64,000 nucleotides of DNA from an uncultured Phycisphaerales bacterium (GCA_963976955.1 CAXBMD010000003.1:147464-211463), one strand, 5' to 3'. Positions 36,316-55,762 are shown, numbered from the stretch's first letter. Numbers and translations: made by a program. Notes: a model not told the origin generated them from the sequence alone.

Positions 36316-36333
36316 TTGACTTCAAAGGTATAC

Positions 36334-36363: not shown

Positions 36364-36498
36364 GCCCGTTTTGGAGCGAGCTACGCGGTTCGGCGCGTCT
36401 CCGAGATTTCCCACTCTGACCATATCAGCCAATATTCGTCCAAGTTGCCGCGAGTGTCTCTCGTGGCGATGTTAGGGATGTCCCCATGTACAGTTTCA

Positions 36499-36660
36499 GT
36501 TCCCTGTTCGAGGGGTATTAACAGGGACTCTGAGCAAAATCAGGGAGCAAAGCGTCACTCATCCCCGAGATGACCCCCATTCATCGCATGGGAAAGGCAT
36601 CAATTGGCGTGGAATGTCCGGATTTCCCTGCGCGAGCGAACAGGGAATGAGCAGGGAATC
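36499..36660. repeat. Cluster of CAGGGA/TCCCTG motifs forming two imperfect palindromes next to the recombinase 3' end
   Basis: TCCCTG occurs at 36501 and 36625; CAGGGA occurs at 36522, 36541, 36641 and 36652. The palindromes are AGTTCCCTGTT..AACAGGGACT and ATTTCCCTG..CAGGGAAT. Confidence 0.6.
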
Positions 36661-36670
36661 GGCTCGTCGA

Positions 36671-38395: not shown

Positions 38396-38405
38396 GGTGT
38401 ACTCC

Positions 38406-38861: not shown

Positions 38862-39098
38862 GCGGGTCTCGTGGTCAAGCCCCTGTCGCCGACCCAGGGA
38901 TCCGCGCACACCGATCGCGCCGCTCAGGTATTGAGAGGGATCGTTGACCCGTGTGCTTGGGTTTCTGGGGCCGGCATCAAGGAGCCGGTCGGGGTGCTGC
39001 GGGAGTCTCCCGCGGTGTGACACATGAAGCCATGGATTGGGAGAGATTGCAAGTCCAAAGGGCCTAGATTCTCGACAAATATGGAAGTCTTTGGAAAA

Positions 39099-40178
39099 TC
39101 AGCCCATCAGGTGCGAAGTGCGCTCACCACCATGCTTATTCACCCACTCTTCAGTACTGAGCCTCGGCGGCGGTCCCGGACGAATGCATGTTCGCTCACC
39201 GAAGATACGGTCAAGCACATAGTGTTCCTCGGGCACCTGCGCAAAGAACACGCAGCTCCGCTTGCATTCCTCTTCGGTCGCGTCGGGATGGGGTGCTCTA
39301 TGGAATGCTCCACCACGCCCCTCGCCCTGCCCGGCGGCGTATGGCTGCTGCTGGTACTGGGACATGAACGCGCGAGCACCCATCCGCTCCATGGCCGCGC
39401 GGAGTTGCTCCCGATCTTCACGCGCCGGATGGAGGGCCTCGCCTTTCTTTCTCGCGAGTTGTCCGCTGATCGACGCGGGGAGGTATTCGTCCTCGGTGGC
39501 AATCGCCGCTAAGCTCAGCACCTCCCAGTCTTCTTGTTTGAGCAGATGCGCCGTGAGATCGTCATCGGCGAGCCGCTGCATGGCCACGATGATCACGCCG
39601 TCGTGCTTGCTGTCCAGACGCTGGTAGATGTTCCGGTCAAACCAGTTGTGAATCGAGATGGTCTTCTGTGGATCGTCCGCTTCGTGGGCCGACTGCGGGT
39701 CATCGATGATGATGAAGTCTGCACCCCTGCCCGTAATAGCCCCCGACGGTGTGAATCCCGCACGAGAGCCGCCCTGCGCAAGCTTCAGGGTGCTGGTCGA
39801 TTCTTGCACACGCACATGCGGGAACAGCGACCGGTATCGTGGATGGTCCATCAGGTTCCGGGTCAGATCATGGTGCTCATTGACCAGCCCTCGGTGCCCG
39901 GCGACGCACATGATCTTGGACTCTGGTCGCACACCAAGCACCCAGGCAGGGAAGGCGATCGATGTGCAGATCGACTTGAGTGATCTCGGCGGCATGTTGA
40001 TGATGAGCCGCTTGGTCTCCCCGCGGTGGCACCGGGCCAGCGCCTCACCCAACACATCGATCGACCAGTTGTGCTGGTACTTGATATGCGGGTGCAACGC
40101 CCTGAACGCCAGCTGGAAGAACATCCGGGGCTCATACTGGTACATATGACGGATCGCTTTGGTTTCTGGGCTACTCAT
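39099..40178 (-). CDS. Terminase-large-subunit-like ATPase with a short or degenerate C-terminal (nuclease) region
   Basis: A Walker A-like MPPRSLKS and a Walker B DFIIIDDPQ are present. MSQYQQQP and HYVLD are typical of TerL-family proteins. At 359 aa it is shorter than the usual size of more than 420 aa. Confidence 0.6.
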   Translation of the reverse strand: MSSPETKAIRHMYQYEPRMFFQLAFRALHPHIKYQHNWSIDVLGEALARCHRGETKRLIINMPPRSLKSICTSIAFPAWVLGVRPESKIMCVAGHRGLVNEHHDLTRNLMDHPRYRSLFPHVRVQESTSTLKLAQGGSRAGFTPSGAITGRGADFIIIDDPQSAHEADDPQKTISIHNWFDRNIYQRLDSKHDGVIIVAMQRLADDDLTAHLLKQEDWEVLSLAAIATEDEYLPASISGQLARKKGEALHPAREDREQLRAAMERMGARAFMSQYQQQPYAAGQGEGRGGAFHRAPHPDATEEECKRSCVFFAQVPEEHYVLDRIFGERTCIRPGPPPRLSTEEWVNKHGGERTSHLMG

Positions 40179-40563
40179 CAGTCGGCTCCTTTGTCTGATT
40201 CTCTTCTGCGGATCCTAACTGACGGGTCAGTTGTTCGAAGGCTTGACGATCTGCGGCGTCGGGTTGGAACCCCTCGACTGAGTGGTGCTTGGCAATAAAC
40301 GGAAGGGCCAACTTCGTGGCCCGCAGATCACCCTTGATCGCGTCGTTCATCAGTCTTTTGATGATCACTTCGCGTTTGGTGAGGGTCACCTGTCGCCCGC
40401 CCTCCGTGATCCGGAGTTCTTTGCTGAGCTCGATATCGATGAGCTTCTCGAAGTCTTTGATCTTCTTCGGTCGTCCGTTCGGGTTTCCTGATTGACCCGC
40501 TTTCCACTGTGTGTGCTTGGGTGGTTTCTGGTATCCGATTTCGTATTGGGGTTGATCATCCAT
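40171..40563 (-). CDS. DUF5681-like small protein
   Basis: The N-terminal GYQKPPKHTQWKAGQSGNPNGRPKK matches the motif I recall for DUF5681. The gene overlaps both neighbours by 8 nt. Confidence 0.6.
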   Translation of the reverse strand: MDDQPQYEIGYQKPPKHTQWKAGQSGNPNGRPKKIKDFEKLIDIELSKELRITEGGRQVTLTKREVIIKRLMNDAIKGDLRATKLALPFIAKHHSVEGFQPDAADRQAFEQLTRQLGSAEENQTKEPTDE

Positions 40564-41935
40564 TTGTCATCTCCTCTAGGTTGTTCGCGTTGGCGCGGGT
40601 TTCTGTGAGTTCGGTGTAGGTCTTGCCGGTCTGCTCGTGGATGGCTTCTTTCCCGGTCCATTGCTGCCAGCGGGCGATCGCGACATCGACATAGCGCGGG
40701 GAGAGTTCCATCCCGGCACACACGCGTTTGGACTTCTCGCAGGCGATGAGCGTCGAGCCGCTGCCGAGGAACGGATCTAAAACAATCTCACCACGTCGCG
40801 AGCAATCAAGGATCGCCTCTTCGATGAGCCGCACCGGTTTGATCGTCGGGTGGAGCTTGAGCACTTCGCGCGACGCGGGGTCTCCCTCGGCGGCATCGAG
40901 CGAGCGTGCCGATGGGAAGCTCCACACATTGCTCCGCATGCGCCCGTGCTCGCCGAGGCCGAAGTTGTTCCGGTGACGATCGGTCCCGTGCTTGAACACA
41001 AAGACCAGTTCGTGCTGGCTGCGATAGAACGTGCCCATCCCGGGGCGGTCCTTAACCCAGATGCAGAGATTCTTGAGCTCGGTGTAGTGGGTGTTGCCCG
41101 CGGCCAGCATCTCGGTGGCGTGCCGCCAGTCCATGAAGTGGTAGTGGATCGAGCCGGGACTGCTTACCTTGCAGAGTTGTTTCATCACGGACCCGAGGAA
41201 CTCCGTGAACTCGGCCGGGGACATCTCCCCTGAACCCATGGCGAAATCGCCGTGCTCACCGGCGCACACCTGTCCGATGGCTTTGGCGGGTAAGTTGTAC
41301 GGGGGATCGGTGAAGATCATTGCGGCCTGCTGATCGCCAAGCAGTTGTTGGTAGGAAGCCGGATCAGTACAGTCGGCGCACAGCACGCGATGTGCATGGT
41401 CTCTATCGCCGAGGATCCAGAGATCACCGGGTCGAGTTACTGGGGCGAGAGCTTGGTCGTCGGGAAGATCATCCGCATCATCGTGCTCGGCGATTCCATC
41501 ACCGGCAAGTGCCTCCTCGATCCCCAAGATCCGCTGCTCGATCTCACCGTAGTCGAAGCCGATGCACTCGATGTCGAAGTTGAGATCCAGATCGGAGAGG
41601 ACCTTGAGGTGCTCACCGAGCAACTGGTCGTCCCAGGTGCTGATCTCGGTGAGCCGGTTGTCGGCGATCATCAGGGCACGGATCTGAGAGTCGTCGAGAT
41701 CGGTCACCCGGATGGCCGGAATCGAGGTCATCTTGAGGAGTTTGCTCGCCTCGACACGGGCATGGCCGCACACCAATCGTGAATCCTGATCGATGATCAC
41801 CGGCATCCGGAAGCCGAAGGCTTCGATGCTCTGGGCGATCTGGCGGATCTGCTTCTTGGGATGCACACGAGGGTTACTGGGGTGGGGGGTGATGTTGGTT
41901 AATTTGATATGTTCGATCTGTAGTTCGGTGTTCAC
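40556..41935 (-). CDS. ParB-like N-terminal domain fused to a DNA methyltransferase (DPPY, N6A/N4C beta class)
   Basis: The ParB-N part reads IEHIKL...HPSNPRVHP...ICGHARVEA. The methyltransferase part has motif IV FTDPPYNL and motif I IVLDPFLGSGSTLIA. The start is a GTG at 41935 with SD AAGGAG. The longer ORF-track N-terminus is rejected. Confidence 0.85.
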   Translation of the reverse strand: MNTELQIEHIKLTNITPHPSNPRVHPKKQIRQIAQSIEAFGFRMPVIIDQDSRLVCGHARVEASKLLKMTSIPAIRVTDLDDSQIRALMIADNRLTEISTWDDQLLGEHLKVLSDLDLNFDIECIGFDYGEIEQRILGIEEALAGDGIAEHDDADDLPDDQALAPVTRPGDLWILGDRDHAHRVLCADCTDPASYQQLLGDQQAAMIFTDPPYNLPAKAIGQVCAGEHGDFAMGSGEMSPAEFTEFLGSVMKQLCKVSSPGSIHYHFMDWRHATEMLAAGNTHYTELKNLCIWVKDRPGMGTFYRSQHELVFVFKHGTDRHRNNFGLGEHGRMRSNVWSFPSARSLDAAEGDPASREVLKLHPTIKPVRLIEEAILDCSRRGEIVLDPFLGSGSTLIACEKSKRVCAGMELSPRYVDVAIARWQQWTGKEAIHEQTGKTYTELTETRANANNLEEMTNG

Positions 41936-42331
41936 GGTGAACTCCTTAGTCAGGGCGATGACACGAAGACACCGCCGCAGGGACAAAGCGACCCGAGCAC
42001 GCACAAGCGGATATGGAGAACGACACCACAACACGCCGGGCATACCGGTAGAACAGGATGAATTTCTGAGTTCTAGTCGCCCGAGCCCCGGCGTCAGAGA
42101 TCGGTCCGGAACCATGTTCCAGTATCCGCTCCGAGACCTGCTGGATTGAATCAATCGCACCAGCGGGAACCTGCCTGGACCATACCAGGCTACGGCCTAA
42201 CTACCCATGCAGCCGGCCGCGGCTGGGCAATCCAACTGCTCCCGATCACATCGACCCATGTCGGGTGGGTTGGGAGGGGATGGATTGCCTAGACAAATTG
42301 TAGCACAAAAATGCAGGGGTCAAGCGTAGAT

Positions 42332-42630
42332 GTAGTGGGCAAAGAAAAAAATTTCTGCATGCAGTGTTCAGACATTAGATAATTGCTCTATTTCGACTTT
42401 CAATTTACTTACATCTGGGAATTGGTAACAAGCCATTCGGCTGGAGAGATTCACAGTGAGCCACGGAGCGCGGATAGGGTTTTTGAACCTCTGAAGGGTG
42501 GGATTTCGGCTGAATTGTAGATGATTCTAGAAAGATTGAAATCCATCCGTTTGGGTACGTTTAGCCGGGTTTCTTCGAGAATGTAAATGACTCCAGAAAG
42601 ACTGAGTGCCTTATGATTGAGTACACTCCG
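42332..42630 (+). repeat. Junction repeat copy R1
   Basis: It contains GTAGTGGGCAAAG (42332), GCGGATAGGGTTTTTGAACC (42470), an internal tandem duplication of a GATTCTAGAAAGA-type unit, and GTGCCTTATGATTGAGTACACTCCG (42604-42630). Confidence 0.7.
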
Positions 42631-42736
42631 TCTCAAATTTGTGACGATGGAGCTTATGTGGTACAAATTTCGGTTCCCAAGGGGGGCGACCAACAATCAA
42701 CTTCAACTCGCTATAATCTGTTAGTAGGAGGTATGC

Positions 42737-42910
42737 ATGCCCTGGCTCACTGAGATTCTCGCGTTCATCGGCGGCGTCATTGCCACACTTACTGCAAAGC
42801 CGCTTCTAGGACGGTTCATGATCCGTATGAATTCAAACCGCGTAAATCAGTCCAATGCCAAAGCGTCCGGCGACATTGTTGGCCGTGACAAGATCGGACG
42901 GGATGCCTGA
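42737..42910 (+). CDS. Small membrane-anchored protein (57 aa), the first ORF of the ABC-3C-like operon
   Basis: Hand translation gives MPWLTEILAFIGGVIATLTAKPLLGRFMIRMNSNRVNQSNAKASGDIVGRDKIGRDA. It has one TM helix and a GDIVGRD-type motif. An SD GGAGG lies upstream. Its stop overlaps the next ATG (ATGCCTGA). Confidence 0.5.
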   Translation: MPWLTEILAFIGGVIATLTAKPLLGRFMIRMNSNRVNQSNAKASGDIVGRDKIGRDA

Positions 42911-43481
42911 GTTGGGCAATAACCGCACCAATCAGTCAGGGTCACAGGCTGGCGGCCATATAGCCGGTAGAGATATTCATATTGTTAATGAACAGCAGCA
43001 CATCTCGCCGCTTCGATCACTACTAGCTCGTATTGATCAAGCACGCGAAGATGATCCAGAGCTCAATGAGTTGATTGATCAGCTTCAGCACTTCTCAAAT
43101 CCTGCTGGGGACGGCCCGCCAATCGGCCTTGAGAAGAAACTCATGGATGGCAATCGCGAGGAATTAGTTCGGCAAGCCACTCGTGAGAAGGAGATGTTTG
43201 CCAAGCTCCTCGCCCAAAATCAGCTCTCGTACAGCGCGCAGAAGGTATATGCATATTTACTGGGCAGCGTACGAGATCGTTTCAAGCGATATATTACACC
43301 ACTTCTTTGCGACAATGCTACAGCGGATCAAGTCGACGCAGCCATTGTTGAGCACATCGTCGAGCCGTGTGTGCAAGACCTCGAGCACAACCCGCTCGAT
43401 ATCAGCACAACTCATATCCACGGCATGGTGTATTTTCTGACCGGCAACTGCTATTTGCTATGGACAGGGAGGGATGTATGA
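42903..43481 (+). CDS. ABC-3C C-terminal-domain (CTD)-like component
   Basis: The sequence runs MPELGNN...AGGHIAGRDIHIV and then helical...HGMVYFLTGNCYLLW. It resembles my recollection of ABC-three-component CTD proteins. The ORF-track start at 42855 is also possible. Confidence 0.55.
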   Translation: MPELGNNRTNQSGSQAGGHIAGRDIHIVNEQQHISPLRSLLARIDQAREDDPELNELIDQLQHFSNPAGDGPPIGLEKKLMDGNREELVRQATREKEMFAKLLAQNQLSYSAQKVYAYLLGSVRDRFKRYITPLLCDNATADQVDAAIVEHIVEPCVQDLEHNPLDISTTHIHGMVYFLTGNCYLLWTGRDV

Positions 43482-43984
43482 TCCTTTATCACCCCGTTCA
43501 CGATCCGCATCATGCGGCCTTTCGTATGCTCCGCTTGCTATTGGCCCATCCCGATCACGCGATACCTCACATCGCTCTTAGAATTTTGGATTTCTATTTA
43601 CTTTTCCCTGCGGAGATCGAGGATATTCAGATGCCCGCCGCACTGCGTACGTGGAAAACGATGTTCCGCTCACACCAGAACAAGTACTTCTCGAACGTCT
43701 CGAAACACTCAGTCTTCAGGCAGCTAGCGGGACCACAGGTGCTGGGTCTCCGTCTACTGCAGTCTCGCGGCCTCATCTCTGATATCGCTGGCGACGCCAA
43801 TCCAATCTCAGCGCATGTGGAAGAGATCCCATCCGGACTTGCCGATATGCTGCGGCGTGTGGATGATTCAGAGCGACAGCTGATTAACTTCCTCGCACGC
43901 GATCTTGGAGCGACCGAGTTGAATGGCCAGATGGGCTTGAAAAAAAGAACAGGGCTTGCTGAGTTCCGCTATGACATCGCATAA
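43478..43984 (+). CDS. ABC-3C middle-component-like protein
   Basis: The 168-aa helical protein reads MILYHPVHDPHHAAFRMLRLL...LRILDFYLLFP. It overlaps the upstream gene by ATGA and the downstream gene by 14 nt. Confidence 0.55.
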   Translation: MILYHPVHDPHHAAFRMLRLLLAHPDHAIPHIALRILDFYLLFPAEIEDIQMPAALRTWKTMFRSHQNKYFSNVSKHSVFRQLAGPQVLGLRLLQSRGLISDIAGDANPISAHVEEIPSGLADMLRRVDDSERQLINFLARDLGATELNGQMGLKKRTGLAEFRYDIA

Positions 43985-45977
43985 TCCCAGCTTGTTTGTG
44001 AGACGATTCGTGATTTCCGCGGGGGAACATCGTGGTTATGACGAAACATTTAAACTTGGGCTTAACTTTATCACCGGCGAGAGCAATGCCGTAGGCAAGT
44101 CAACGGTTGTCAATCTGCTCGCGTTTGCGCTTGGCAGTGATCTGACTGATTGGACGCCAGAGACGCTTCGGTTTGACAGTACTCTTGTAGAAGTAAGTCT
44201 GAACGGAGCAACGCTCACACTGAGGCGAGAGATATCTGAAGATCGTGGCCGGCCAATGGACGTCTACTGGGGCTCGCTTGATGACGCGCTCAAGGCCACG
44301 ATCACCGATTGGGAACGATACGGTTACAAGCGATCTGATCACAAAGAAAGCTTCTCATCGCTGCTGTTCAAACTACTTGGCTTGCCGGAAATTCACAATG
44401 AGCTGGGCGGTAAGCTCACGATGCACCAAATTTTACGACTCATCTTCGTCGATCAACTGACTCCGTCCGACGAGATGTTTGGCTCCGAGGACTTTGATTC
44501 ACCTGCAGTGAAGCGTGAAGTTGGCGCAATTCTCTGCGGATACTATAGCGATGCGGAGTACAGGCTCCGTGCTGATCTTCGGACCGCAGCAGATGAGCTT
44601 CAAGAGCTGAAGGCACGGCAGAAGATACTCGACGAATTCGTCCTAGATACAGAGCAAGATATCTCGGTACTGTCCGTGCAAACACAGTTAGATAATGCTC
44701 GCTTCAAGCTTACGGAGGCAGAAGCCTCAGTGCGAACCGTCTTGGAAAATCCACGTTCTCGACGTGAGATCACTACTGAGTACAAGCGGCAACTGAAGGC
44801 GGCCCAGAAGGATGTTGAAAATGCTGCCCACGATCTAGGGCGTTCCGAACGAGAGCTCGTTTCAACACGGTTTGCTATCGAGGATAGCCAGTTATTTGTA
44901 GACTCCCTTGATCGGACGCTCGCAGCGCTGGAACAGTCCGCGTCAATTCGTGATGCACTTGGCGAGTTGCCTATACGTAGTTGCCCAGTGTGCCACCATC
45001 CAGTCGCTTTGGTGGCAGATGAGTCCAACTGCCCTCTATGCAAAGAGACGCGAAGCCCCGGAGCTGATGAGACACAGCTACTGCGAATGCGCAGCGAACT
45101 CACCCTACAACGGGAGGAATCCCTTCGCTTGCAAGATGAGCGGCAAGAACAGATGCTTCGTTTGGAAGTTGTAGTCCCACAGCAAAAAGTAGCTCTCAAA
45201 ACTACAAGAATGAAGCTTGGTCGCCTTCAGGAGAGCATCGATCCGGCCATTGATGCAACGATTGGAACTGCTTATCGTGAGGCGGGCTACTTGCAGGGTG
45301 TTGTCGAAGATCTTGAACGGCAGCTTCGAATGGTGCAGGAGCTAGAGGCAGCAAGGGAGCGTCGCTCCCGGCTGGACGCAGAAATCAACCGCATGAAGTC
45401 CGAGCTTGCTGCAGCCGAAGATAAAACTGAAGAACGACGCTCTGAGGCCCGGCGGCTCATATCTGAACACACTGTGGAATTGCTTCGACGAGATGAATGT
45501 AATGCGCAGGGTGAGCCAGTAGAACGCGGACTATCTGAGTGTCACAGCGTTGATTTCAGCTTTTCAAAGGGACAAGTGCGAGTAGATGGCCGGCGGACGT
45601 TCTCGGCAAGCTCGATGGTAATCCTTAAGAACTCATTTCATACAGCGATGCTGCTCGCTTCTCTTGATGATCCTGATTTTCGGTATCCACGCCTGCTCAT
45701 TTTAGATAACATTGAAGACAAGGGAATGCAGCCATCCCGAAGCCATAATTTTCAGCATCTGCTACTAGATGTGTCCAAGAACACGGAAGTAGACCACCAG
45801 ATTATCGCCACAACTTCTATGATTGCTGAGGATCTCAGAGGCTCTGAGCATATTGTCGGGCAATACTATACATCGACACGGAAGTCTCTCGTACTCCCCA
45901 GTCATACCTCGGCGGACGGAGAAGGCATAACGACGAGTAAACCTGCGGCCGAGCCAAATGAACCGGACGCAGATTAA
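43971..45977 (+). CDS. Rad50/SMC-like ABC ATPase with a coiled-coil insert and a central 4-Cys zinc ribbon
   Basis: Motifs present are Walker A GESNAVGKST, a signature-like FSASSM and Walker B RLLILDNIED. About 300 aa of heptad-rich sequence contains CPVCHH...CPLC. Confidence 0.8.
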   Translation: MTSHNPSLFVRRFVISAGEHRGYDETFKLGLNFITGESNAVGKSTVVNLLAFALGSDLTDWTPETLRFDSTLVEVSLNGATLTLRREISEDRGRPMDVYWGSLDDALKATITDWERYGYKRSDHKESFSSLLFKLLGLPEIHNELGGKLTMHQILRLIFVDQLTPSDEMFGSEDFDSPAVKREVGAILCGYYSDAEYRLRADLRTAADELQELKARQKILDEFVLDTEQDISVLSVQTQLDNARFKLTEAEASVRTVLENPRSRREITTEYKRQLKAAQKDVENAAHDLGRSERELVSTRFAIEDSQLFVDSLDRTLAALEQSASIRDALGELPIRSCPVCHHPVALVADESNCPLCKETRSPGADETQLLRMRSELTLQREESLRLQDERQEQMLRLEVVVPQQKVALKTTRMKLGRLQESIDPAIDATIGTAYREAGYLQGVVEDLERQLRMVQELEAARERRSRLDAEINRMKSELAAAEDKTEERRSEARRLISEHTVELLRRDECNAQGEPVERGLSECHSVDFSFSKGQVRVDGRRTFSASSMVILKNSFHTAMLLASLDDPDFRYPRLLILDNIEDKGMQPSRSHNFQHLLLDVSKNTEVDHQIIATTSMIAEDLRGSEHIVGQYYTSTRKSLVLPSHTSADGEGITTSKPAAEPNEPDAD

Positions 45978-46026
45978 CCACGCACATGATTCGCGAATCA
46001 ATGATTGCCACGCACTGTCATATGAC

Positions 46027-46382
46027 GTAGTGGGCAAAAACGAATCGACGGGTATGGTGGCTGATAGTTATTGGATTTGCAGAGGAATGGATGTGCTTGG
46101 GGATCAAAAACCCTATCCGCGCCCATCGTCGATGCGACAGCTGGAATTTGGCAGTTTGTTAGAGCAGCCCGAGTCTTTGAATCACTCAATGGCATCACTT
46201 CGTGTGCTATCGTGCAATCGACCCATCGGCTCTACCCAATGCCAGCATTTTGGGTGACCGTGCGGCATTGATCTTGTATCAAAGGTGCGGATAGGGTTTT
46301 TGAACCCCTGGAGGGCGGGGGGTCTGCAAAAAATATAGTTGATTCTAGAGAAACTGTATGCCATATGTTTGAACACACTCCG
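46027..46382 (+). repeat. Junction repeat copy R2 (most complete; contains a 17-25 nt inverted-repeat pair)
   Basis: It contains GTAGTGGGCAAAAA (46027), TCAAAAACCCTATCCGC (46104-46120), GTCGATGCGACAGCTGGAATTTGGC (46128), GCGGATAGGGTTTTTGA (46287-46303) and GTATGCCATATGTTTGAACACACTCCG (46356-46382). Confidence 0.75.
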
Positions 46383-46760
46383 GGTAGAAGTTGAACGGTT
46401 CAAGGTCTGCAGTGAAGACAGGCAATACGAAACCACCATCATTGTCAGGCAAACCATGATTCTAGCCCCTAGCAAGGAAGACCCTGCCGGGGTAGTTCCA
46501 GGACTAAAGGAAGCCCGGACAATTGAAGGTAAGCCATGCAATCGCCTCGACGAGACGCGATTTGAGATTGTTGGATCCAATACTGTTCTTATTCGGGTAT
46601 AGTGATTATCAGGTGGAGCAACTAGACTACAATGTTCGTCCGCTTCATTCCATATTGCAGGTGCCGGCTCCTGACTAGCTTACCAATAGCTTGCCCATTT
46701 TTTATGCGAGATAACTCTTGAAAAAGATGGAATTCGCAGATTGTCCAAACATGACGAACT

Positions 46761-49700
46761 TCAGGCATCCAACAATGTATCTGGATAGCAGATTTTAACT
46801 TGTGCAATGGCATCATCTTCAATGAACTCAATCGGTACGCGATTCTGAAACAGGAGGACTGATTCAATGGTCGTTTCCTCCATGCCAACAAATCTAGCCA
46901 ACGCCTGTTGGTTGTCACAAAGTAAATTAACCCGTTGCAAATGACGCAACAGCCGATCGGGTTTTCCACGGTTATCTACTTGACCACGAAACTCCACCAG
47001 TTGCCTTGCAACTTCTCCAGGGGTCTTCGCAACAAATAAATTTTTACACTCGATGACAAGCGTGCGCGATAGTTTCGGATTCCATGCGAGAATATCTACA
47101 TCACCATAGTCTCGTTCGAGCTTTCTTCCGAGAATCTCTGGAAGTTCACGCTCGAGCTTAACTTTCCACCCATCCTTTCGGAGCAATGCTGCCATAGATT
47201 TGGTGAACTTGTGTCCAAGTTGATTACGGCGTGATCCAGCCCAGGCACGCATCCGCTGAGATGTGAAAATCTGATCCTCAAATTCACCATTAAATGCGCG
47301 CGACAAGCGAAGTGCGAGTCCTATCCGCACCAGTTCTGGGCTACATATGCATAGGCTCTCATCCGAATTGGTCAGTTGAACGATTGGGCGGTAAACCAGC
47401 GACAATCGACGCTTGAATCGCCACGGGACAATATCTTTGTCGGTATACCCTTCGGAAGGTATATCCCATGAAGCCCTATGCCTGATGATTAGTTCATTGA
47501 TAAACCGGTTGGATGAGTCTTCCGACATAGACTTTGCTGCGAGTTGGAAATATCGGGATCGTTTCCAGCATACGACTGGGCTGTGCTCTTGAAGAGCTTG
47601 GTCATCCAGCTCGTCAAGGAACTTCCGTGCTTCGTCAATATCGAATCCGAACTCTTCTTTCCAAATCTCAGGAAACTCGGCACCTACTGTCTCGGCTATA
47701 GGATCGCTTCGGATATCCTGCTCAAACATATTTTCGTATGAATCTGAGTAGCTCTGGAGGCGGATAGATTCCGTACCGAAACCATATGGTTCGAGAATAC
47801 CATCGTGAAAATCACTCGAGATATGAAGGAGCCCAAGTGTAGATACTTCAATTCTGTCAGTGATCACTTCGCACTGAATGCCATCAGACCAACCGCCGTA
47901 TTGGCAGATAAGCTGAATCAGTGCTATAAGTCGCGATAACTCAAATTCCCCTGGCATTTCGCCATCGCTCTCGGGGCACTCGCAAATCGCCATCTCGATA
48001 GCGTATCGACTTGCACTACTTGCGATGTTATTACGAAAAATATGATCTGCTGCAGTTCGTAGTGTGTTGTCTTTACCATCTTGTAAAGCAAGGACAGCAC
48101 GAATCGTTCTCTGCCACTGTTGATTGCTGCGATGAGTCGCCATCGTATTGAGCATCAGTTTCTCGATAGTTGACTTTCGATCAAGCCGCTTGAGCAACTT
48201 CCGTACATCCTCCCATAGGGAATCTACGACTTGGTTCAGTGTGGAAGTACACCGCTTGACCCCATCAATGACATCTCCAGGAGACAATCCTTTCACCCGA
48301 AACGCTATGCCCAAACGACTAAGCGTGTCGTCAAACGGTTCGAATAAAATCGGATGACGGGGTATCTTGTCAGCTACGAAATCAGCAAATTCTCTCGCTT
48401 CGAACAAATGAAAATGGCGAGCGTATTCACTACCGACCGCCTGCTTGGCAGTCTGGATGGGATCAAGATCAGTGTTGAGTATCTGATTGACACCGTCTAC
48501 GAGCGACATCAGTATGGCCTGTTCAGCGGAGTTCTTTGGTTGGTGAAAGCCAATGTACACGGATCTTGGCAAATAGGAAGTGATACTTTTTTTCGAAATG
48601 TTAACTCGTGTCTCAATTTTCGAAAACAACTGATCGGCCGATTCGGGTTGATCAATATTGAGATCCGCGGGATCAGATGTAGTTTCGTACTCAATATGCC
48701 ATGCAATTTCGGTCATGGATGAGATTCCGATCGCCGATTCGAGTGCTGGGACAATCGTCGCGATCCATTTAGTAGCTGCATCCCAGAATCTAAACAGACC
48801 ATCACGATCTTCGGGGTCTGCAGTATGGCTGGTGAGCCACACACTCATCCAGGCCCCTTCGTACACTGATTTGAGCGTGCCCAAGGCAATATCGGTTATA
48901 GATCCATAAAGCGGCAAGTCGAATTCGGAACTAAAATAGGAACCTATATGGTACCGACGAACTAGCACTGGCATTGATTCGGGTGGAGTAGCAAGATGAA
49001 GATCATGTAGTTGAGCAACGCAACGGCGCATATCGAAGATTGAGTTTAAGGGGATTGAGAGCATCAGCGGACCACCGTCCTTGACCATGTCCGGCTCGAG
49101 GGCACTATGGGGTGCGAGATGGAAACCTTGACTGGAAACAAATTCGAAGAGATTCAATAGCCCATTTGCATTTCGAATCAGGACATTTCTTCGCTCAAGT
49201 TCCCGGACATGGTCTAGCAGGCGAAACATGTGAAGCGGCTGCATTCCCTTTGACCAACTCAAGGTGACAAGTTGCTCGATTGATGTCACTTCGATACGCC
49301 AGTCATCTCTTCCTGTTTCAAACGCAGGTATTGCAATTCCACGCCCCCATCCGCAACCAACCACGATTGTGATACCCTCTTTGTAGTTCGGCTGTGATGC
49401 CGCACGACTCATTGCAGCATCTAGGCAGCTTTGGCATAAGTCGCCAGCGTTGTCGAAAGAAGGACTTACGCTTGTGAAATTGTGATAATTGAACTGCTCG
49501 AAATCATCCAAGAGGAATAGGAAATGGATGAAACGACCCGAGTCGACCTCCTTTATGACTTCACCTGTGACAATGGGATTGTCAAAACGCCATAAAAGTG
49601 GGGCACCGAACGATTCTCCAAGTATTGGGGTTCCTTTGATGAGATCCGTATACTCGAGTGCTAAACGACTACCCAGCATGCTTTTCATGCCATACTGATC

Positions 49701-50537
49701 AGCAAACATGATTACACGAAATCGAATTGCTGTTGAAATATTGGCTGGTACTGCGATCAGCACACCACTTGAGTACCTAACCAGTGGTTTCAGAAAAAGA
49801 TCAGAACGACCTTCTTCCTGCCGAGTTTTACGGAGAAGTTGTACTGATGTTGAAAAGGCTATAATGTCATCTGGTTTGACCCCAAGTTGTGCAAGCTCAG
49901 CATTTGTGAATAAGACAGCCTTGCTCAACTCGGAGGCTTGTGAAGCGACTTCCGGTTGAAGCCTTGGCACCGGATACTCCTCGCCACAGCTGTATCGCGT
50001 GAGACCACGGCGCTCTGCAACCGCCTCGGATAGTATTAGCATGCTCTTGACTTCATCTTTGAGGAGGATAAATGGCTGCTTGTCTGGCATTGATTCGATA
50101 GCATTAAGAAATCTTTGGAGATGAAATGCGCTCGCTTCCCAAAGCCCTTCAAAGATGCGAAAATTCTGGCCACGAAAGTAAACAAGCGAGACAAAAACAT
50201 CCTCGGCAGGGTCTTCCATTGAGCCATGCCCTAGATCGCCAAATATTTTGAACAGTTGTATCAGCTGATTTGTGTTTAATCGCTTTTTGCCATTTGCATT
50301 GCAAAGGACATCTTCAATCATCTTTTCCAGACGGTGAGCATTTGAGGCAACTTCTGGGCAAGTCAGTAAACCAGCAATCTGAGCGGTTGAATTTATGGGA
50401 TCCAAGTTTTTGATAACTCGATCAGCCTCTGTTGATTTATTCTGAAACTGTCGGCGATCATGTTCGGGTATCTTGGGCGCACCAAGCTTATCGAGCTTAG
50501 CCTGGTATTTTTCTTGATCAAACTCTGCAGGTTCCAT
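46761..50537 (-). CDS. Giant (1258 aa) protein of unknown function with a C-terminal PD-(D/E)xK (Mrr-cat/restriction-endonuclease-like) domain
   Basis: The C-terminus reads GHKFTKSMAALLRKDGWKV...YGDVDILAW...LVIECK, a D...ExK pattern at about residues 1146-1165 by my count. I found no Walker A or helicase motif anywhere. The coding sequence is low in GC. Confidence 0.75.
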   Translation of the reverse strand: MEPAEFDQEKYQAKLDKLGAPKIPEHDRRQFQNKSTEADRVIKNLDPINSTAQIAGLLTCPEVASNAHRLEKMIEDVLCNANGKKRLNTNQLIQLFKIFGDLGHGSMEDPAEDVFVSLVYFRGQNFRIFEGLWEASAFHLQRFLNAIESMPDKQPFILLKDEVKSMLILSEAVAERRGLTRYSCGEEYPVPRLQPEVASQASELSKAVLFTNAELAQLGVKPDDIIAFSTSVQLLRKTRQEEGRSDLFLKPLVRYSSGVLIAVPANISTAIRFRVIMFADQYGMKSMLGSRLALEYTDLIKGTPILGESFGAPLLWRFDNPIVTGEVIKEVDSGRFIHFLFLLDDFEQFNYHNFTSVSPSFDNAGDLCQSCLDAAMSRAASQPNYKEGITIVVGCGWGRGIAIPAFETGRDDWRIEVTSIEQLVTLSWSKGMQPLHMFRLLDHVRELERRNVLIRNANGLLNLFEFVSSQGFHLAPHSALEPDMVKDGGPLMLSIPLNSIFDMRRCVAQLHDLHLATPPESMPVLVRRYHIGSYFSSEFDLPLYGSITDIALGTLKSVYEGAWMSVWLTSHTADPEDRDGLFRFWDAATKWIATIVPALESAIGISSMTEIAWHIEYETTSDPADLNIDQPESADQLFSKIETRVNISKKSITSYLPRSVYIGFHQPKNSAEQAILMSLVDGVNQILNTDLDPIQTAKQAVGSEYARHFHLFEAREFADFVADKIPRHPILFEPFDDTLSRLGIAFRVKGLSPGDVIDGVKRCTSTLNQVVDSLWEDVRKLLKRLDRKSTIEKLMLNTMATHRSNQQWQRTIRAVLALQDGKDNTLRTAADHIFRNNIASSASRYAIEMAICECPESDGEMPGEFELSRLIALIQLICQYGGWSDGIQCEVITDRIEVSTLGLLHISSDFHDGILEPYGFGTESIRLQSYSDSYENMFEQDIRSDPIAETVGAEFPEIWKEEFGFDIDEARKFLDELDDQALQEHSPVVCWKRSRYFQLAAKSMSEDSSNRFINELIIRHRASWDIPSEGYTDKDIVPWRFKRRLSLVYRPIVQLTNSDESLCICSPELVRIGLALRLSRAFNGEFEDQIFTSQRMRAWAGSRRNQLGHKFTKSMAALLRKDGWKVKLERELPEILGRKLERDYGDVDILAWNPKLSRTLVIECKNLFVAKTPGEVARQLVEFRGQVDNRGKPDRLLRHLQRVNLLCDNQQALARFVGMEETTIESVLLFQNRVPIEFIEDDAIAQVKICYPDTLLDA

Positions 50538-50699
50538 CTAGACTCCAGTTGCAACAATCGTAGCCGGGAAAATCCAATCTTGATTATCGGGAAATAATGA
50601 TCCAGCGAGATTGTGGGTTCGCGGTGGTATAGCAGATGACGACACCCTCTCGCGTATACCTAAATAGCATGTGAGCTTTATGTAACGGCTTCGTATTGG

Positions 50700-50800
50700 G
50701 CGGTATGGGGAGACTGGAAATTGGGAGGCTGCTTACCCCGGGGTTTCTTTAAAACGAGGCAATTATTGAGAAACCTAATGCCATGTGTCTAAACACGCTC
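50700..50800 (+). repeat. Junction repeat copy R3 (partial)
   Basis: GAGAAACCTAATGCCATGTGTCTAAACACGCTC (50768-50800) aligns with the 3' end of R2. The upstream part is only weakly similar. Confidence 0.5.
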
Positions 50801-50808
50801 TAAGACTA

Positions 50809-53800
50809 TTACTTGCCAGATCCAATCAACGCCTCTGCTTCGGTGAGGAGGGATTGGGCGATTCGGTCTTCGGCCCAGGGGGTGCCGTCGGGGTTGAGGG
50901 CTTGGGGGTCGGCCATGATGGCACGGGCGAGATCGAACGCGTATCGAGCCCGTGCTTCATCTGATTCTCCACCGAGGCCAGGAAGTTCGGAAGGCGGCAT
51001 CAGTATCGCAGAGTCAGAATCCCCCCAGATCTGAGCCAGTCCGAGGGCGAATACCAGCCGATCGATCGGATTTGGAGGGCCTCCCGCGTCCGAACGAGCA
51101 CGCCATGCAAAGGCACTCTCCGCAACGGCAATGTCAAAGTTACCAGCAGTGAGTTCAGCCTGGGCGGCAATCCGAAATGTTGCTTCGTGCTCTGCCCCGA
51201 ACTGAACCCCGTTATTCACAGCCGTGCGGAGTACTTCGAGAGTAAGTGAACTATCGATTCCCGCCAACTCGATACAGGTCTGCACGGCCTCCGTCATGTC
51301 CGAATGCCATTGCTCCCAGTGAACTGCAGGCGCCCCTGCATCTCCTGATCTCGCCACGGCGACTGCCTCCGCAAGTCGCCGTTGCTTGGTTTGTTCGGCT
51401 AGCTGCTCTTTTTCCGTAACCCGGGGTGGTGTGTATTCCCACACCTCGGCTTTGGCGAGGACTTGTTCCTTTACCCTCACAGGCAGGTCCGCGGCGTTGG
51501 CAGCGGAGAGGACCTCGGTCTTGTTGGTCTGGTCTTTGGTGATGGTCTCGAATGCACGCTTTGCTTCATTGTCGATGTCGCCGAGGCGTTCTCCGAGCAA
51601 CTCGGCGGCGGCTAGGCGGCGGAGGGGGGTGAGCGCGGGGGATGTTTCGATGGCGGGCATCAAATCATCGGTTGGGGTCGGCCCGGCCATGAGGGTGTCA
51701 AGGTACGCTCCCGCAGGAATACGCTCGGCCCAGCGGCGCTGGACATCGGCGGCCTGATCCTCGGCGGATCGGGTGTCTAAGATTCTGGCTGAGCCGTCGT
51801 CGAGTTCGATGACCAGGCGTGTGCCATCGGGCGTGAAGGTCAGGTTGGTGACGCCGGCGTCCATGGGGATCGACGCGAGTTCGTTCTCGGTTTCGGGGTC
51901 CCAGAAGCGGACTGTGTTGTCGGCGGCTGCGGTGACGATTCGGGTGCCGGTGGGGTGGGTGGCGATGACTGTCGTATTGAGAGTAAAGGGTACAGATTGA
52001 AGCTTCATCTCATGAACATCTTTTCCAATACCATCAGGATCGATCTCAGCTTCGATCGCAAGCAATAGGTGTTTGCTCTGATGCAGCAAGCGGTCAGACT
52101 CGTAAAGACTATTTGTTTTCATCAAAACTGATTTACTACGGCCTTGACGATCAAAGCCATTGATAAAGACCGTGTCGTTGTCGACGAATTCCGCAATCCC
52201 ATTGTCACTTGATTTAACAGGGGCATGAAAGAGAGGTCCAATCAGATTGCCCTGCATATCAAATAGACCAGCTCGACCTTCGGACGACCAACTATTGATG
52301 AGAATCTGGCTGCTATCGTTAGATATTAACACAAAAGAGAGATGGTTTCCAGCAAGCCCAAAATCATTGATATGCGACCCATCTCTGTTCCAGAGGTGAA
52401 TCAAACTCGTCTTTCGAATCAATACAACTGAACTATCCGGGCTGAAACGGATTCTTGGTGAGTTGCTGCTGTGCGTTGCCTGAGCTAGTACAGGACCAAC
52501 CCGGTTGCCGTCAATGTCCCACATCCGGACACTGTGATCGCCACTCTCGATCAGGACCCGTTGCCCATCCGGGCTGATCGTGATTGATTCGGCTCTGCTA
52601 TCGAGTTGTATGAACATGCCGTGTTCGGATCCATCCAAATTCCACATCTGCACGCGACCATCTTCTGTTGCAGTGATAAGCATTTGCCCGTCGGGGCTGA
52701 ACTTGGCGATACTCACCGTACCGCTGTGGATCATTGGCGAACCTACTGATGAGCCGTCGAGATTCAATAATTGTACAGTTTGATCCGCATAAACCACGAG
52801 TAACATCGAATCATCCGGACTAAATATTGGCTCCCATATCCAATCTGTTTCATGGAGTTCACGAGTTACTATTCCTGAAAAATCCAATTGGCGAATGGTT
52901 CGATCTTTCAAAATTATCGACATTCTTTGGTTATCATGGCTAAAGCGAACATCATTTGTCCATGCATAATATGGAATTGGCTCTCCGACCGGTTGCCCAT
53001 CTAAGTTCCAGAGTTGCAAAATCTTTTGAGGAATATGATCATCAGATTTGTACCCACCAAGGCTAACTGTGCTTAAATAATTTCCGTCAGGGCTGAGCTT
53101 GACAGAGACCAGGGAACCCTCAGTTGACATTGAAACGCCGATTTGATTTCCTTCTGTGTCCATGAACTTCATGCGTTGGCTGTAGAATTCCCATGACAAT
53201 ACAATTTTTCCATTAGGACTGACCAACAATTCTCCTGAAAATTCTTTGAAATAGCTATTCGCTCTTTTTGACAAGTACTCCCACTCCCACCCGCGTTTGC
53301 TTTGGGGGCAGGCGGCGATGCGGTCGCGGGCTTCGGGCCAGTTGCTGTTGTCCATCGCCATCTGTGCCAGCGCTAGGTTGGCTGTGTACGAGTTCCACTC
53401 GACTTCATCTGTTCGCACAAGCAACTTCTCATTTGTGTCTTTCAGATCGTCTCGCGCAGATTGAGCGATAGTGGCGTTATTCAGCGCCGCATCGGCGTTG
53501 TATTGCGCGATCACCAGCCCCACAGTTGTCCCAGCAATTCCTAGCAGCAGAGTCGCCGCGACTGCACCTCCGGCGATCACCGGTCCTCGATTCCTTTTCA
53601 CAAATTTCCGAAGCTTGTACCCTCGGCTCACCGGAGCAGCAATAACCGCATCTCCGTCGAGATGCCGCTGGACATCGGCTGCCAATGCGCTGGGGGTTTC
53701 GTATCGCCGCGACCGATCTTTGTCGAGCGCCTTTATGGCGATCCAGTCGAGTTCGCCCTTGAGAAGAGCGCTGAGTTTGGTTGGCTCGGATTTTCGCGAT

Positions 53801-54801
53801 GCAGCGATCGCGGCGAGTTTGAATACATCTCGTGACAGCCGTTGGCTGGGGGCGGGTGGTTCTTCTTCTTTGATGATCCGGCGAATCTCGTTGTAAGCGG
53901 CGCTGCGTAGACGTTTGGCGTCGAGGGGGGTTTGCCCGGTGAGCAGTTCGTAGAGCAGCACACCAAGCGCGTAGACATCGGTGCGGGTATCGATGTCCGG
54001 CAGCCCCTCGGCCTGCTCGGGGCTCATGTATTCGAGCGTGCCGATAAGTTGGTGGTGCTCGGTGAAGAGTGTCTTGTCGGTGAGTTGCGAGGCGGTTGCT
54101 TTGGCGATTCCGAAGTCAATGACTTTGGCCAAGGGCTTGCCATCGGTCATCGACACAAGAATATTGTTTGGTTTGATGTCGCGGTGGATGATGCCTTTGG
54201 TGTGCGCGTGCTGAACGGCGGCACACGCTTGATTGAAGATCGCTAGTCGCTCGCGGACGCTGAGCTTGTGGGCATCGGCGAACTCGGTGATTGAGTCACC
54301 CACGACATACTCCATCACGAAATATGGGCGTCCCGATTCGGTCGCACCCGCATCGAGTACGCGGGCGATGTTTGGGTGGTCCATGAGCGCGAGGGCTTGG
54401 CGTTCGGCTTCGAAGCGGGCGATGACCTGCTTGGTGTCCATGCCGAGCTTGATGATTTTGAGAGCGACGCGCCGACGGATTGGCTTTGATTGCTCAGCGA
54501 GGAATACCGTCCCGAATCCGCCCTCACCGATCTGTTGGAGCAGTTTGTAGGGGCCGATCACTGTCCCCGCTTTTTCGGTGATGGCGACAAATTGGCTTGG
54601 TGAAGCGGTGGGTGCGGTCGGGCTCCCCATGAATCCACCGGCGTCTTCGTGTGCCATCAGGAGTGTCAAAACATCGTGTTGAAGTTGGGCGTCGTTCGCA
54701 CAGAGCGAATCGAGCTTTGCTTGGCGTTCGTCTTCTGGGAGGTCGATGATTTCCAAAAAGATATCGCGTGCTTGAAATTTGCGTTCGTTTTCCATGATCA
54801 A
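50809..54801 (-). CDS. Membrane Ser/Thr protein kinase with a WD40-type beta-propeller and a C-terminal helical region
   Basis: Hanks kinase motifs are present (GEGGFGTV, VALK, HRDIKPNNILV, DFGIAK, SPEQ). One TM segment follows (VIAGGAVAATLLLGIAGTTVGLVIA), then many SPDG...LWNLDG repeats. Confidence 0.9.
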   Translation of the reverse strand: MIMENERKFQARDIFLEIIDLPEDERQAKLDSLCANDAQLQHDVLTLLMAHEDAGGFMGSPTAPTASPSQFVAITEKAGTVIGPYKLLQQIGEGGFGTVFLAEQSKPIRRRVALKIIKLGMDTKQVIARFEAERQALALMDHPNIARVLDAGATESGRPYFVMEYVVGDSITEFADAHKLSVRERLAIFNQACAAVQHAHTKGIIHRDIKPNNILVSMTDGKPLAKVIDFGIAKATASQLTDKTLFTEHHQLIGTLEYMSPEQAEGLPDIDTRTDVYALGVLLYELLTGQTPLDAKRLRSAAYNEIRRIIKEEEPPAPSQRLSRDVFKLAAIAASRKSEPTKLSALLKGELDWIAIKALDKDRSRRYETPSALAADVQRHLDGDAVIAAPVSRGYKLRKFVKRNRGPVIAGGAVAATLLLGIAGTTVGLVIAQYNADAALNNATIAQSARDDLKDTNEKLLVRTDEVEWNSYTANLALAQMAMDNSNWPEARDRIAACPQSKRGWEWEYLSKRANSYFKEFSGELLVSPNGKIVLSWEFYSQRMKFMDTEGNQIGVSMSTEGSLVSVKLSPDGNYLSTVSLGGYKSDDHIPQKILQLWNLDGQPVGEPIPYYAWTNDVRFSHDNQRMSIILKDRTIRQLDFSGIVTRELHETDWIWEPIFSPDDSMLLVVYADQTVQLLNLDGSSVGSPMIHSGTVSIAKFSPDGQMLITATEDGRVQMWNLDGSEHGMFIQLDSRAESITISPDGQRVLIESGDHSVRMWDIDGNRVGPVLAQATHSSNSPRIRFSPDSSVVLIRKTSLIHLWNRDGSHINDFGLAGNHLSFVLISNDSSQILINSWSSEGRAGLFDMQGNLIGPLFHAPVKSSDNGIAEFVDNDTVFINGFDRQGRSKSVLMKTNSLYESDRLLHQSKHLLLAIEAEIDPDGIGKDVHEMKLQSVPFTLNTTVIATHPTGTRIVTAAADNTVRFWDPETENELASIPMDAGVTNLTFTPDGTRLVIELDDGSARILDTRSAEDQAADVQRRWAERIPAGAYLDTLMAGPTPTDDLMPAIETSPALTPLRRLAAAELLGERLGDIDNEAKRAFETITKDQTNKTEVLSAANAADLPVRVKEQVLAKAEVWEYTPPRVTEKEQLAEQTKQRRLAEAVAVARSGDAGAPAVHWEQWHSDMTEAVQTCIELAGIDSSLTLEVLRTAVNNGVQFGAEHEATFRIAAQAELTAGNFDIAVAESAFAWRARSDAGGPPNPIDRLVFALGLAQIWGDSDSAILMPPSELPGLGGESDEARARYAFDLARAIMADPQALNPDGTPWAEDRIAQSLLTEAEALIGSGK

Positions 54802-55373
54802 ACCTCATTTTGCCCGTTCAAACTGCGATACAGCACCGCCCGAGCATATGACCAGAGCCGGGCGCAGGTCCTTGGTGAGATTCCGAGGACCGCGGCGGTC
54901 TGGTCGACACTGAGACCCGCGTAGAAGCGCAGCCTTACAACGGCCGCCGCATCCGGGTCTTCAGTCTCCAAGCGTATGACGGCGGCATCGACTGCCAAGA
55001 TTTCTTCTGGATCTTGTAAAATAAGTGCTGCCGCGTCTGGAAACTCGGTAAGTTTGTGATGATTCCCGCCGCGGGCTCTGTGGGCGCGGGCGTGGTCGAT
55101 GAGGATCCGCCGCATGGCCTGGGCAGCTGCGGCATAGAAATGAGCCCGGTTCTGCCAGGGCAACTCGCGAGGTCCAGCAAGCCGCAAATATGCTTCATGG
55201 ACCAACGCGGTTGCTTGGAGTGTGTGCCCGGGGCGTTCGGAGGCGATCGCCTGCTGGGCCGCAGCCCGGAGCTGGGCATAGACCAACTCCATCAGTTCAG
55301 CGGCCGAAGCTTGATCGCCCTGCAACGCACTCTTGGTCAGTTGTTCTAGTCTCTCTGAACTGCTGCTTGACAT
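54798..55373 (-). CDS. ECF-type sigma-70 family factor (kinase-associated type)
   Basis: Region 2 (LVHEAYLRL) and region 4 (RLRFYAGLSVDQTAAVLGISPRT) are present. The stop overlaps the kinase start by 4 nt. Confidence 0.85.
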   Translation of the reverse strand: MSSSSSERLEQLTKSALQGDQASAAELMELVYAQLRAAAQQAIASERPGHTLQATALVHEAYLRLAGPRELPWQNRAHFYAAAAQAMRRILIDHARAHRARGGNHHKLTEFPDAAALILQDPEEILAVDAAVIRLETEDPDAAAVVRLRFYAGLSVDQTAAVLGISPRTCARLWSYARAVLYRSLNGQNEV

Positions 55374-55422
55374 TGTTTCTATTCTAGGTTCGACGCGGAG
55401 AGGGCAGAATTACACTGGTGCG

Positions 55423-55762
55423 GTGTGGGCAAAAGCTAATCGAGGACAAGGGGCTCAGATCATTGATGGATTTGAGGGAAAATTTATTGTCTATGGCCTC
55501 AGAAACCCTAATCCGAAATTCGGGTCGATGCGACAGTTGGATTTGGCCATCAGGCTATGTGCTGAGGGGTGCGGCAGCAGATTGTGGCACCCTCTTGGTT
55601 ATGCTTTCCGTGTATTCGAGCTTTACAGAACCGCTTCTTCTCGGGCTGAGTCCAGTGAGAGTGCTAACTGACACAAATTACACCTGTCAGGGGAATATTT
55701 TGACGGATCTGCTTGTTGCCAGGGGTTCAGGAGTACTAGATGCCATTTGATTTGTGTACTGC
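55423..55762 (+). repeat. Junction repeat copy R4
   Basis: It contains GTGTGGGCAAAAGC (55423), CAGAAACCCTAATCCG (55500), GTCGATGCGACAGTTGGATTTGGCC (55524) and ATGCCATTTGATTTGTGTACTGC (55740). These segments are collinear with R2. Confidence 0.65.

Follow-up and report, generated by a model that had tools for sequence, protein, structure and literature searches.

Junction repeats in a marine Phycisphaerales accessory island are probably relics of an insertion-sequence family and its miniature derivative

We analysed a 64-kb window (the whole stretch of DNA studied here, with positions counted from its first letter) out of the 3.04-Mb TARA Oceans scaffold TARA_SAMEA4397295 scaffold_1, focusing on four non-coding repeats, R1 to R4, that separate the gene cassettes of an accessory island. 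The nearest relatives of the window are Phycisphaerales metagenome-assembled genomes (MAGs). We conclude that R1 to R4 are very probably four old, transposase-less copies of a single insertion sequence (IS) family of marine Phycisphaerales. R2 is an intact miniature inverted-repeat transposable element (MITE), and R1, R3 and R4 are older copies that are more decayed or internally deleted:

42331-42630, plus strand: R1, a non-autonomous copy of ~300 nt
46026-46382, plus strand: R2, a complete 357-nt MITE
50559-50800, plus strand: R3, a short relic of ~242 nt
55396-~55768, plus strand: R4, a copy in four pieces

An earlier note on this DNA had described four spacers in the same orientation sharing collinear blocks, and pairwise blastn bore this out, with all matches on the plus strand, collinear and far above chance. 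R1 and R2 match over 85 nt (75% identity, E = 2e-13), the 3' block being present twice in tandem in R1, while R2 and R4 match over 126 nt (69%, E = 2e-12) and R2 and R3 over 39 nt (77%, E = 3e-5). R3 and R4 are joined by a 71-nt match (66%, E = 2e-6) through a block absent from the note's list. As had been proposed, the repeats are present at all four cassette junctions, and searches with each repeat against the 64 kb (blastn and nhmmer) found no further copies in the other 50 kb. The listed blocks all lie where the note had placed them, with two small motif corrections. The 5' motif was rightly assigned to R1, R2 and R4, but the form given there, GT(A/G)TGGGCAAA omits one base for R1 and R2; it is GTAGTGGGCAAA(G/A) in R1 (42332) and R2 (46027) and GTGTGGGCAAAA in R4 (55423). 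The 3' pattern carried one N too many and matched nothing as written, but the block itself is real: the corrected pattern ACTNNRTGCCWTNTGNTT matches only R1, R2 and R4 (0.07 expected), and R3 agrees in the alignment. In addition, GCGGATAGGGTTTTTGAACC is found inverted in R2 at 46101-46120 (0.01 expected by chance).

Profile hidden Markov models (HMMs) made solely from copies in other genomes, when run on the window, matched it only at R1 to R4:

46026-46124: left module, R2 (E = 4e-19)
55422-55525: left module, R4 (E = 1e-9)
46225-46382: right module, R2 (E = 1e-38)
42449-42554: right module, R1 (E = 3e-17)
42564-42630: tandem copy of the end of the right module, R1 (E = 1e-10)
50738-50800: right module, R3 (E = 1e-6)

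These models, together with the blastn and nhmmer E-values, rule out chance similarity. The significant pieces also scored above the maximum obtained with shuffled sequence: R1 against the right-module consensus (81% over 103 nt; 57 versus 17), the R3 right module (81% over 62 nt; 34 versus 17) and the R4 left module (71% over 94 nt; 32 versus 22). The window copies are 46-70% identical to each other, while the R2 right module reaches 83-87% identity with copies from other genomes, which argues for insertions of different ages rather than local duplications. A viral origin was considered and rejected, as a 17-mer scan of IMG/VR returned three matches, each limited to the seed.

The nature of the family emerges from other genomes. 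Scanning a 20-mer from R1/R2 against one genome per species yielded 15 loci. Phycisphaerales MAGs account for 11, and the remaining 4 equal the number expected by chance. At those loci, nhmmer with R2 recovered full-length copies of ~360 nt along with many separate left modules (corresponding to window 46026-46124) and many separate right modules (46225-46382). Alignments reveal sharp element ends, with conservation starting at CGTAGTGGGCAGAAAC and stopping at ...ATGCCATATGTTTGAACACACTCCG, limits that are also given as a stop at ...CACACTCCG and a start at CGTAGTGGG. The autonomous element in other Phycisphaerales genomes is ~1.42 kb long and is flanked by right and left modules, between which lies a single open reading frame (ORF) of 352 aa on the strand opposite to them. 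Its product matches rve_3 (40.9 bits, cut-off 26.5), just misses the rve cut-off (30.5 bits, cut-off 32.6) and has an N-terminal HTH_32 domain; the best NCBIfam matches are IS481 (98.3 bits, cut-off 224) followed by IS3 (81.8 bits, cut-off 160). Transposase copies are 73-85% identical across genomes, some intact and others frameshifted, and tblastn found no transposase remnant in the window. The terminal inverted repeats are imperfect and ~100 nt long (CGTAGTGGGCAGAAAC and CGGAGTGTGTTCAAAC agree at 11/16 positions), and the subterminal motif AAAAACYCTATCCG at each end is the inverted repeat seen inside R2.

The MITE, at ~355 nt, consists of both element ends around a core of ~100 nt that has no detectable counterpart in the sampled full-length elements. 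R2 is short, lacks a transposase and carries both ends, and the same internal architecture recurs in four copies elsewhere (L numbers refer to loci in other assemblies):

L008 5421-5066: MITE homologue, ~70% identity to R2
L014 6739-6379: MITE homologue, ~70% identity to R2
L038 2585-2940: MITE homologue, 78% identity to R2 over 357 nt
L045 9952-10304: MITE homologue

A plasmid collection gave no match to the MITE and only distant 'integrase core domain' matches to the transposase (29-36% identity), and a literature search for an IS481-type MITE in Planctomycetes found nothing relevant.

Each window copy can be described in terms of these parts. R2 comprises the left module (46026-46124), the MITE-specific core (46125-46224; GTCGATGCGACAGCTGGAATTTGG...) and the right module (46225-46382), with a subterminal 25-nt inverted repeat whose arms (46099-46123 and 46284-46308) lie 160 nt apart. 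The left terminus of R1 is reduced to TGTAGTGGGCAAAG (42331-42345), only its first ~13 nt, and the adjoining left part (42346-42482) has 62% identity to relics in L028/L030; the last ~67 nt of its right module (42449-42554) are tandemly repeated at 42564-42630 with a 66-nt period, ending ...GAGTACACTCCG. R3 retains a tentative left terminus (CGTAGCCGGGAAAATCCAATC, 50559-50579), a 'block C' that is common to R4 (50631-50701) and a right terminus (50738-50800). R4 is made up of a 15-nt left-terminus stub (CGGAGAGGGCAGAAT, 55396-55410), the left module (55422-55525), the MITE core (GTCGATGCGACAGTTGGATTTGGCC, 55524-55549) followed by block C with GCAGATTGTGGCACCCT (55576-55646), and a degenerate right terminus (ACTAGATGCCATTTGATTTG..., 55735-~55768). 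R4 might also be the decayed form of an orthologue of the full-length IS that lies beside the ECF (extracytoplasmic function) sigma gene in L006, but the flanks of the two have only AC(A/C)CTGGT in common and R4 has the MITE-specific core. A separate motif, GCAGATTGTGRCACCC(T), often with ...GAGCTT after it, occurs repeatedly, in a single orientation, at the island junctions of several genomes (55577-55593 in R4; 50631-50650 in R3, degenerate; L006 2920; L034 5433 and 5201; L035 153), and in L034 it lies just outside the element.

The sharp ends bear directly on whether the repeats could instead be a conserved non-coding RNA or a small-protein gene family lying between operons. Small ORFs do begin in the 3' block (in R1 from ATG 42610; in R2 at 46339-46602), and a 48-aa gene has been called at 46456-46602. 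However, the limit of conservation is the element terminus and not an ORF end, the indels between R2 and R4 are not multiples of three and their frames are not conserved, and in full elements this same DNA contains the start of the transposase on the other strand. Rfam at E<=1 matched only the tRNA region of the window and gave no RNA family for the repeats. A coding repeat is ruled out by the unconserved R2/R4 frames and by conservation ending at the element terminus, and the idea as a whole is hardly tenable.

A recurrent integration site, which the earlier note had offered as one possible explanation, is not borne out either, as the repeats are the termini and core of an rve-transposase IS and its MITE. 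In its explicit form, in which dedicated site-specific recombination sites (attC-like, or attachment (att) sites of the neighbouring serine recombinase) capture cassettes, this explanation is largely refuted and we consider it extremely improbable. It would account for repeats that stand at every junction, in one orientation and near a large serine recombinase, but the repeats are the termini of a DDE transposon that encodes its own transposase, and no tyrosine integrase was found among the scanned backbone and cargo genes. Integrons combine IntI and attI with attC sites of 57-141 nt that have paired core sites and co-oriented cassettes; here the adjacent recombinase is a large serine recombinase, the repeats are transposon copies of 240-360 nt with 100-nt arms, unlike attC, and the cassette genes lie on both strands. 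Nor is the tRNA end repeated within the window, as would be expected of a tRNA-linked island: blastn of 36180-36700 against the window found no second copy of the tRNA-Ser end.

Relatives lacking the elements point the same way. Upx homologues in four other contexts, L023 among them, gave no module match at E<=1. The L023 island is syntenic with the one here, its genes running from copper genes through Upx, type I restriction-modification (RM) and DUF2924 to a homologous serine recombinase, and its spacers measure 131-138 nt. Likewise, no module matched at the orthologue of the ECF/kinase pair in L032 (82% nucleotide identity), where the spacers measure 55 and 29 nt. Because the spacers of L023 and L032 do without them, the elements are not part of the island's cassette machinery, and they are optional in this island type.

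Within this clade, the family is clustered, co-oriented and located at cargo boundaries. A generic repetitive extragenic palindromic (REP) element or MITE dispersed genome-wide, which the earlier note had named as a competing outcome, does not fit: in MAG_29, all 6 exact seed matches (the distribution being from an exact-seed scan only) fall within 48 kb of a 1.57-Mb contig, and neither there nor in the window, with its copy-free 50 kb, are there palindromic units dispersed at high copy number like those of REP and bacterial interspersed mosaic elements (BIMEs). The orthologous recombinase of MAG_29 is at 1030.8 kb and the elements at 960-1008 kb, 22-70 kb away on the cargo side and on one strand, forming a cluster of at least 11 elements that includes five IS, two MITEs and solo ends. 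Across 16 multi-element loci with 41 elements, no orientation was discordant and 25/25 independent comparisons were concordant. Replication-strand bias was rejected as the cause: GC skew computed on whole loci agreed with orientation in 11/12 cases, but this fell to 20:10 once elements were masked and more loci were added, leaving skew a weak explanation. Element copies often abut one another. Partial copies of the left terminus (7-33 nt) also occur directly outside complete left ends (window 55396-55410 and 42324-42330; L018 3973/4006; L020 1736/1708/1617; L013 ~5984-5990), and it looks as if new copies had repeatedly landed in or beside a resident terminus.

The setting of the repeats is a conserved backbone (36228-42160) followed by variable cargo, with genes identified by Pfam matches:

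36228-36316, plus strand: tRNA-Ser(cga), conserved backbone
36317-36516: post-tRNA sequence of ~200 nt, backbone
36671-38395, minus strand: large serine recombinase (574 aa in homologues; Resolvase, Recombinase and Zn ribbon domains)
minus strand, backbone: DUF2924-like ORF
39099-40178, minus strand: ORF of ~360 aa, backbone
40171-40563, minus strand: DUF5681 gene, backbone
40556-42160, minus strand: ParB_N/N6_N4 methylase, backbone
42737-55373: variable cargo interspersed with R1 to R4
42855-45977, plus strand: ABC-3C operon
46761-50537, minus strand: Upx-like anti-phage gene (1258 aa, PF28173; name taken from sources)
50809-54801, minus strand: Ser/Thr kinase-WD40 gene
54798-55373, minus strand: ECF sigma factor gene
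from 55783 (ATG): copper-resistance genes

This neighbourhood is as the earlier note had described it, except that its 'giant nuclease' is the Upx-like anti-phage protein (PF28173). G+C content drops from ~0.58 in the backbone to 0.47-0.52 in the cargo between 42 and 51 kb. In 6 other Phycisphaerales assemblies the recombinase backbone recurs at 85-95% identity, with different cargo after each (NACHT; nSTAND and a helicase; AAA/HEAT; another methylase and a 1661-aa protein). More broadly, comparison of 42161-64000 with L023, L025, L026, L028-L030 and L034 outlines a variable defence or accessory locus beside the tRNA-Ser/serine-recombinase/ParB-methylase backbone, containing NACHT, nSTAND with an AAA_11/12 helicase, AAA/HEAT with a DEAD helicase, or type I RM with Upx in relatives and ABC-3C with Upx in the window.

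Some details of the window's cargo are of separate interest. The CTD9 (ABC-3C) gene (42855-43481) is overlapped at its start, in a different frame, by a 57-codon ORF (42737-42910) whose product has a predicted membrane helix (MPWLTEILAFIGGVIATL...); this ORF may be either the frameshifted N-terminus of that gene or a separate small gene. Between the right end of R2 and the Upx stop codon lie ~380 nt (46383-46760), and it is in the sister assembly L031 that the 48-aa gene is called at 46456-46602 on the plus strand.

The boundary between backbone and cargo coincides with R1. Synteny with L028 in blastn (94%) stops at 42339, in the R1 left terminus; identity to the closest relatives is 89-92% up to 42330 and 62% over 42346-42482, with unrelated sequence beyond ~42482, inside R1 (for comparison, third codon positions in flanking genes are 76-82% identical). 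The relatives L028/L030 have a still more decayed relic at the place of R1, and L034 has a clear right module there in the same orientation, with unrelated cargo after the right end. Overall, at least three lineages that differ in cargo have this boundary at the R1 element (the window; L028/L029/L030; L034). A right-module relic also lies between two cargo genes in L025.

IS ends are likewise found at rearrangement junctions around tRNA-Ser in L006, L048 and L051. In L006 and L051, an IS right end joins directly onto the sequence found after tRNA-Ser in the window. In L048, the junction lies 5 nt past tRNA-Ser and leads into an internal IS fragment, after which come ECF/kinase homologues. The post-tRNA-Ser sequence of ~200 nt is itself repeated (window 36311-36516; L006 2701-2876 and 4937-5119; L051 655-860) and includes a terminator-like hairpin. 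It starts exactly at the IS right end in L006 and L051; its two direct copies in L006 flank an ORF with a Peptidase_S74 domain, and in L051 the left end of a second IS follows it directly. This sequence may be an island end or att arm.

Two kinds of gene recur beside the IS. Pairs of an ECF sigma factor (PF07638) and a Ser/Thr kinase adjoin it in 4 genomes, in differing relative orientations (L013 821-3843; L048 6-1030; L006 1-1382; window 50809-55373), an adjacency that may be due to chance given the many such pairs in these genomes. Large RHS-repeat (polymorphic toxin) genes also lie beside IS copies in three further assemblies (L014 1-4608; L018 257-3502; L020 2459-6397).

The earlier note had also suggested a portable promoter or leader module; the repeats are not a dedicated leader, but a portable promoter is plausible from geometry. 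A gap of 22 nt separates the start of the ECF sigma gene (55373) from the R4 stub, and at the opposite end of R4 there are 15 nt before the ATG (55783) of the divergent neighbour. With both starts hugging R4, the promoter of the ECF-kinase operon would have to lie in element-derived DNA. In R3, 21 nt lie between the tentative left terminus and the Upx start codon (50537), and 8 nt between the right terminus and the kinase stop codon. From this spacing we infer that the ECF-kinase operon has its promoter within or running across R4, and Upx within or across R3. A scan for sigma-70-type promoters showed no enrichment in the region; its best site, TAGACA-18-AATAAT in the R3 right module, faces Upx and is at most suggestive.

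If R1 to R4 are relics of this IS family, a transposase supplied in trans would have inserted them, and the copies would persist solely in spacers because insertions into genes were lost. They would accumulate in the low-G+C variable cargo beside the tRNA-Ser/serine-recombinase backbone, with new copies landing next to resident ends in the same orientation. Co-oriented copies would then constitute portable homology, and the direct repeats could have served as substrates for deletion or exchange of cargo. Judging from their geometry and the coincidence of breakpoints, the elements probably have a part in the turnover of cargo. Of the serial insertion or exchange of cassettes proposed in the earlier note, it is an IS-mediated version that the R1 boundary in three lineages and the tRNA-Ser junctions keep alive as a possibility.

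How far the elements shaped the island can be argued both ways. They could be passive litter, MITEs that inserted independently into tolerant spacers of an already assembled island and play no part in its turnover or expression. Relatives do carry the same kinds of cargo without elements, only element-bearing spacers are large, the copies have decayed, and IS copies elsewhere also adjoin housekeeping genes (L015). Such litter would leave the strict co-orientation, the abutting copies, the synteny break at R1 and the IS ends at tRNA-Ser junctions all unexplained, and it sits badly with an ECF sigma promoter that has to lie inside R4; we regard it as possible but doubtful.

At the other extreme, the elements may have built the array by accretion of translocatable units, each a cassette plus an element copy inserted beside a resident copy in fixed orientation and without duplication, whether by end-targeted transposition or by recombination between copies. 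The fully concordant orientations, for which GC skew is a weak explanation, the abutting copies and left-terminus stubs beside complete ends, the near-constant lack of target-site duplications, the cargo boundary at R1 in three lineages and the fusion of IS right ends to the post-tRNA-Ser sequence in L006 and L051 would all be consistent with this. Nevertheless, no cassette was found to have the same elements on its flanks in another context, the Upx homologues (L021-L024) and L032 are element-free, and the low identity among window copies marks them as old and of different ages. A translocatable-unit pathway operates in IS26 (IS6 family), and insertion targeted to inverted repeats occurs in IS911 and IS30, but we know of neither pathway for IS481-like elements. 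On balance, we consider accretion unlikely. A fuller conjecture is that this rve-type IS family prefers sites next to its resident ends, inserts there in one fixed orientation with no duplication, and together with recombination between copies assembles and reshuffles defence cargo beside the backbone, as an IS26-like 'array builder' outside IS6 whose relics also carry the ECF-kinase and Upx promoters; taken in its entirety, this is a long shot.

Several observations count against our identification of the repeats as copies of this family and the role we give them. The 352-aa protein falls under both curated NCBIfam cut-offs, for IS481 and for IS3, and full-length copies are seen only in other assemblies and not in the 64 kb of the window. 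The left termini of R1 and R3 and the right terminus of R4 are each too short or degenerate to be significant alone. Target-site duplications were absent from the first 10 complete copies compared and occur in 1 of ~18 overall (TTGAC in L051), which is unusual for an rve-type transposase. Enrichment in the island is, for the window's own genome, a statement about 64 kb of 3.04 Mb, and the argument for a part in cargo turnover or in supplying promoters is confined to geometry and breakpoint coincidence.

With this identification, an enigmatic junction repeat becomes an annotatable mobile element, found in uncultured marine Phycisphaerales and belonging to a family that none of the resources consulted names. 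A targeted insertion pathway may underlie the co-orientation, the abutting copies and the absent duplications. In that case the family would offer a tractable example of an IS building and remodelling defence islands outside the well-studied Proteobacteria; otherwise its copies would be ordinary IS debris, useful mainly for annotation and as an explanation of why the assemblies of these MAGs break.

Among known systems, the family most resembles IS481, its best NCBIfam match, with which it shares a single ORF encoding an rve-core DDE transposase with an N-terminal helix-turn-helix, inverted repeats and a length of little over 1 kb. It differs in its score (98 bits against a cut-off of 224), in inverted repeats of ~100 nt with a subterminal motif and in duplications that are almost never seen, and the nearest annotated plasmid homologues of its transposase are merely 29-36% identical. 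IS3 elements such as IS911, the second-best match, likewise have an rve core and a leucine-zipper-like N-terminus, but the family here has a single ORF instead of a frameshifted OrfAB and scores 82 bits, below the cut-off of 160. Copies lying next to resident ends are reported for IS911 and IS30 as well, although own-end targeting is here suggested by the arrangement of copies.

The Correia elements of Neisseria, which are MITEs, offer a parallel for R2 and its relatives: short and non-coding, with the ends of an autonomous IS, situated in spacers near gene starts where they could supply promoters, and present in several copies with one internal deletion architecture. Unlike them, the family described here is low-copy, regionally clustered and strictly co-oriented, and its MITE copies lack duplications and have a core without detectable source. 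As in integron attC arrays, a repeat stands at each cassette junction in one orientation, but here there is no IntI, the size and symmetry are not attC-like, genes lie on both strands and the repeats are part of a transposon. IS26 arrays provide a likeness in overall layout, in that directly oriented copies alternate with accessory segments and internal copies lack duplications; in contrast to those arrays, the transposase here is of the rve type and not IS6, most window copies have no transposase and no unit is found in two contexts.

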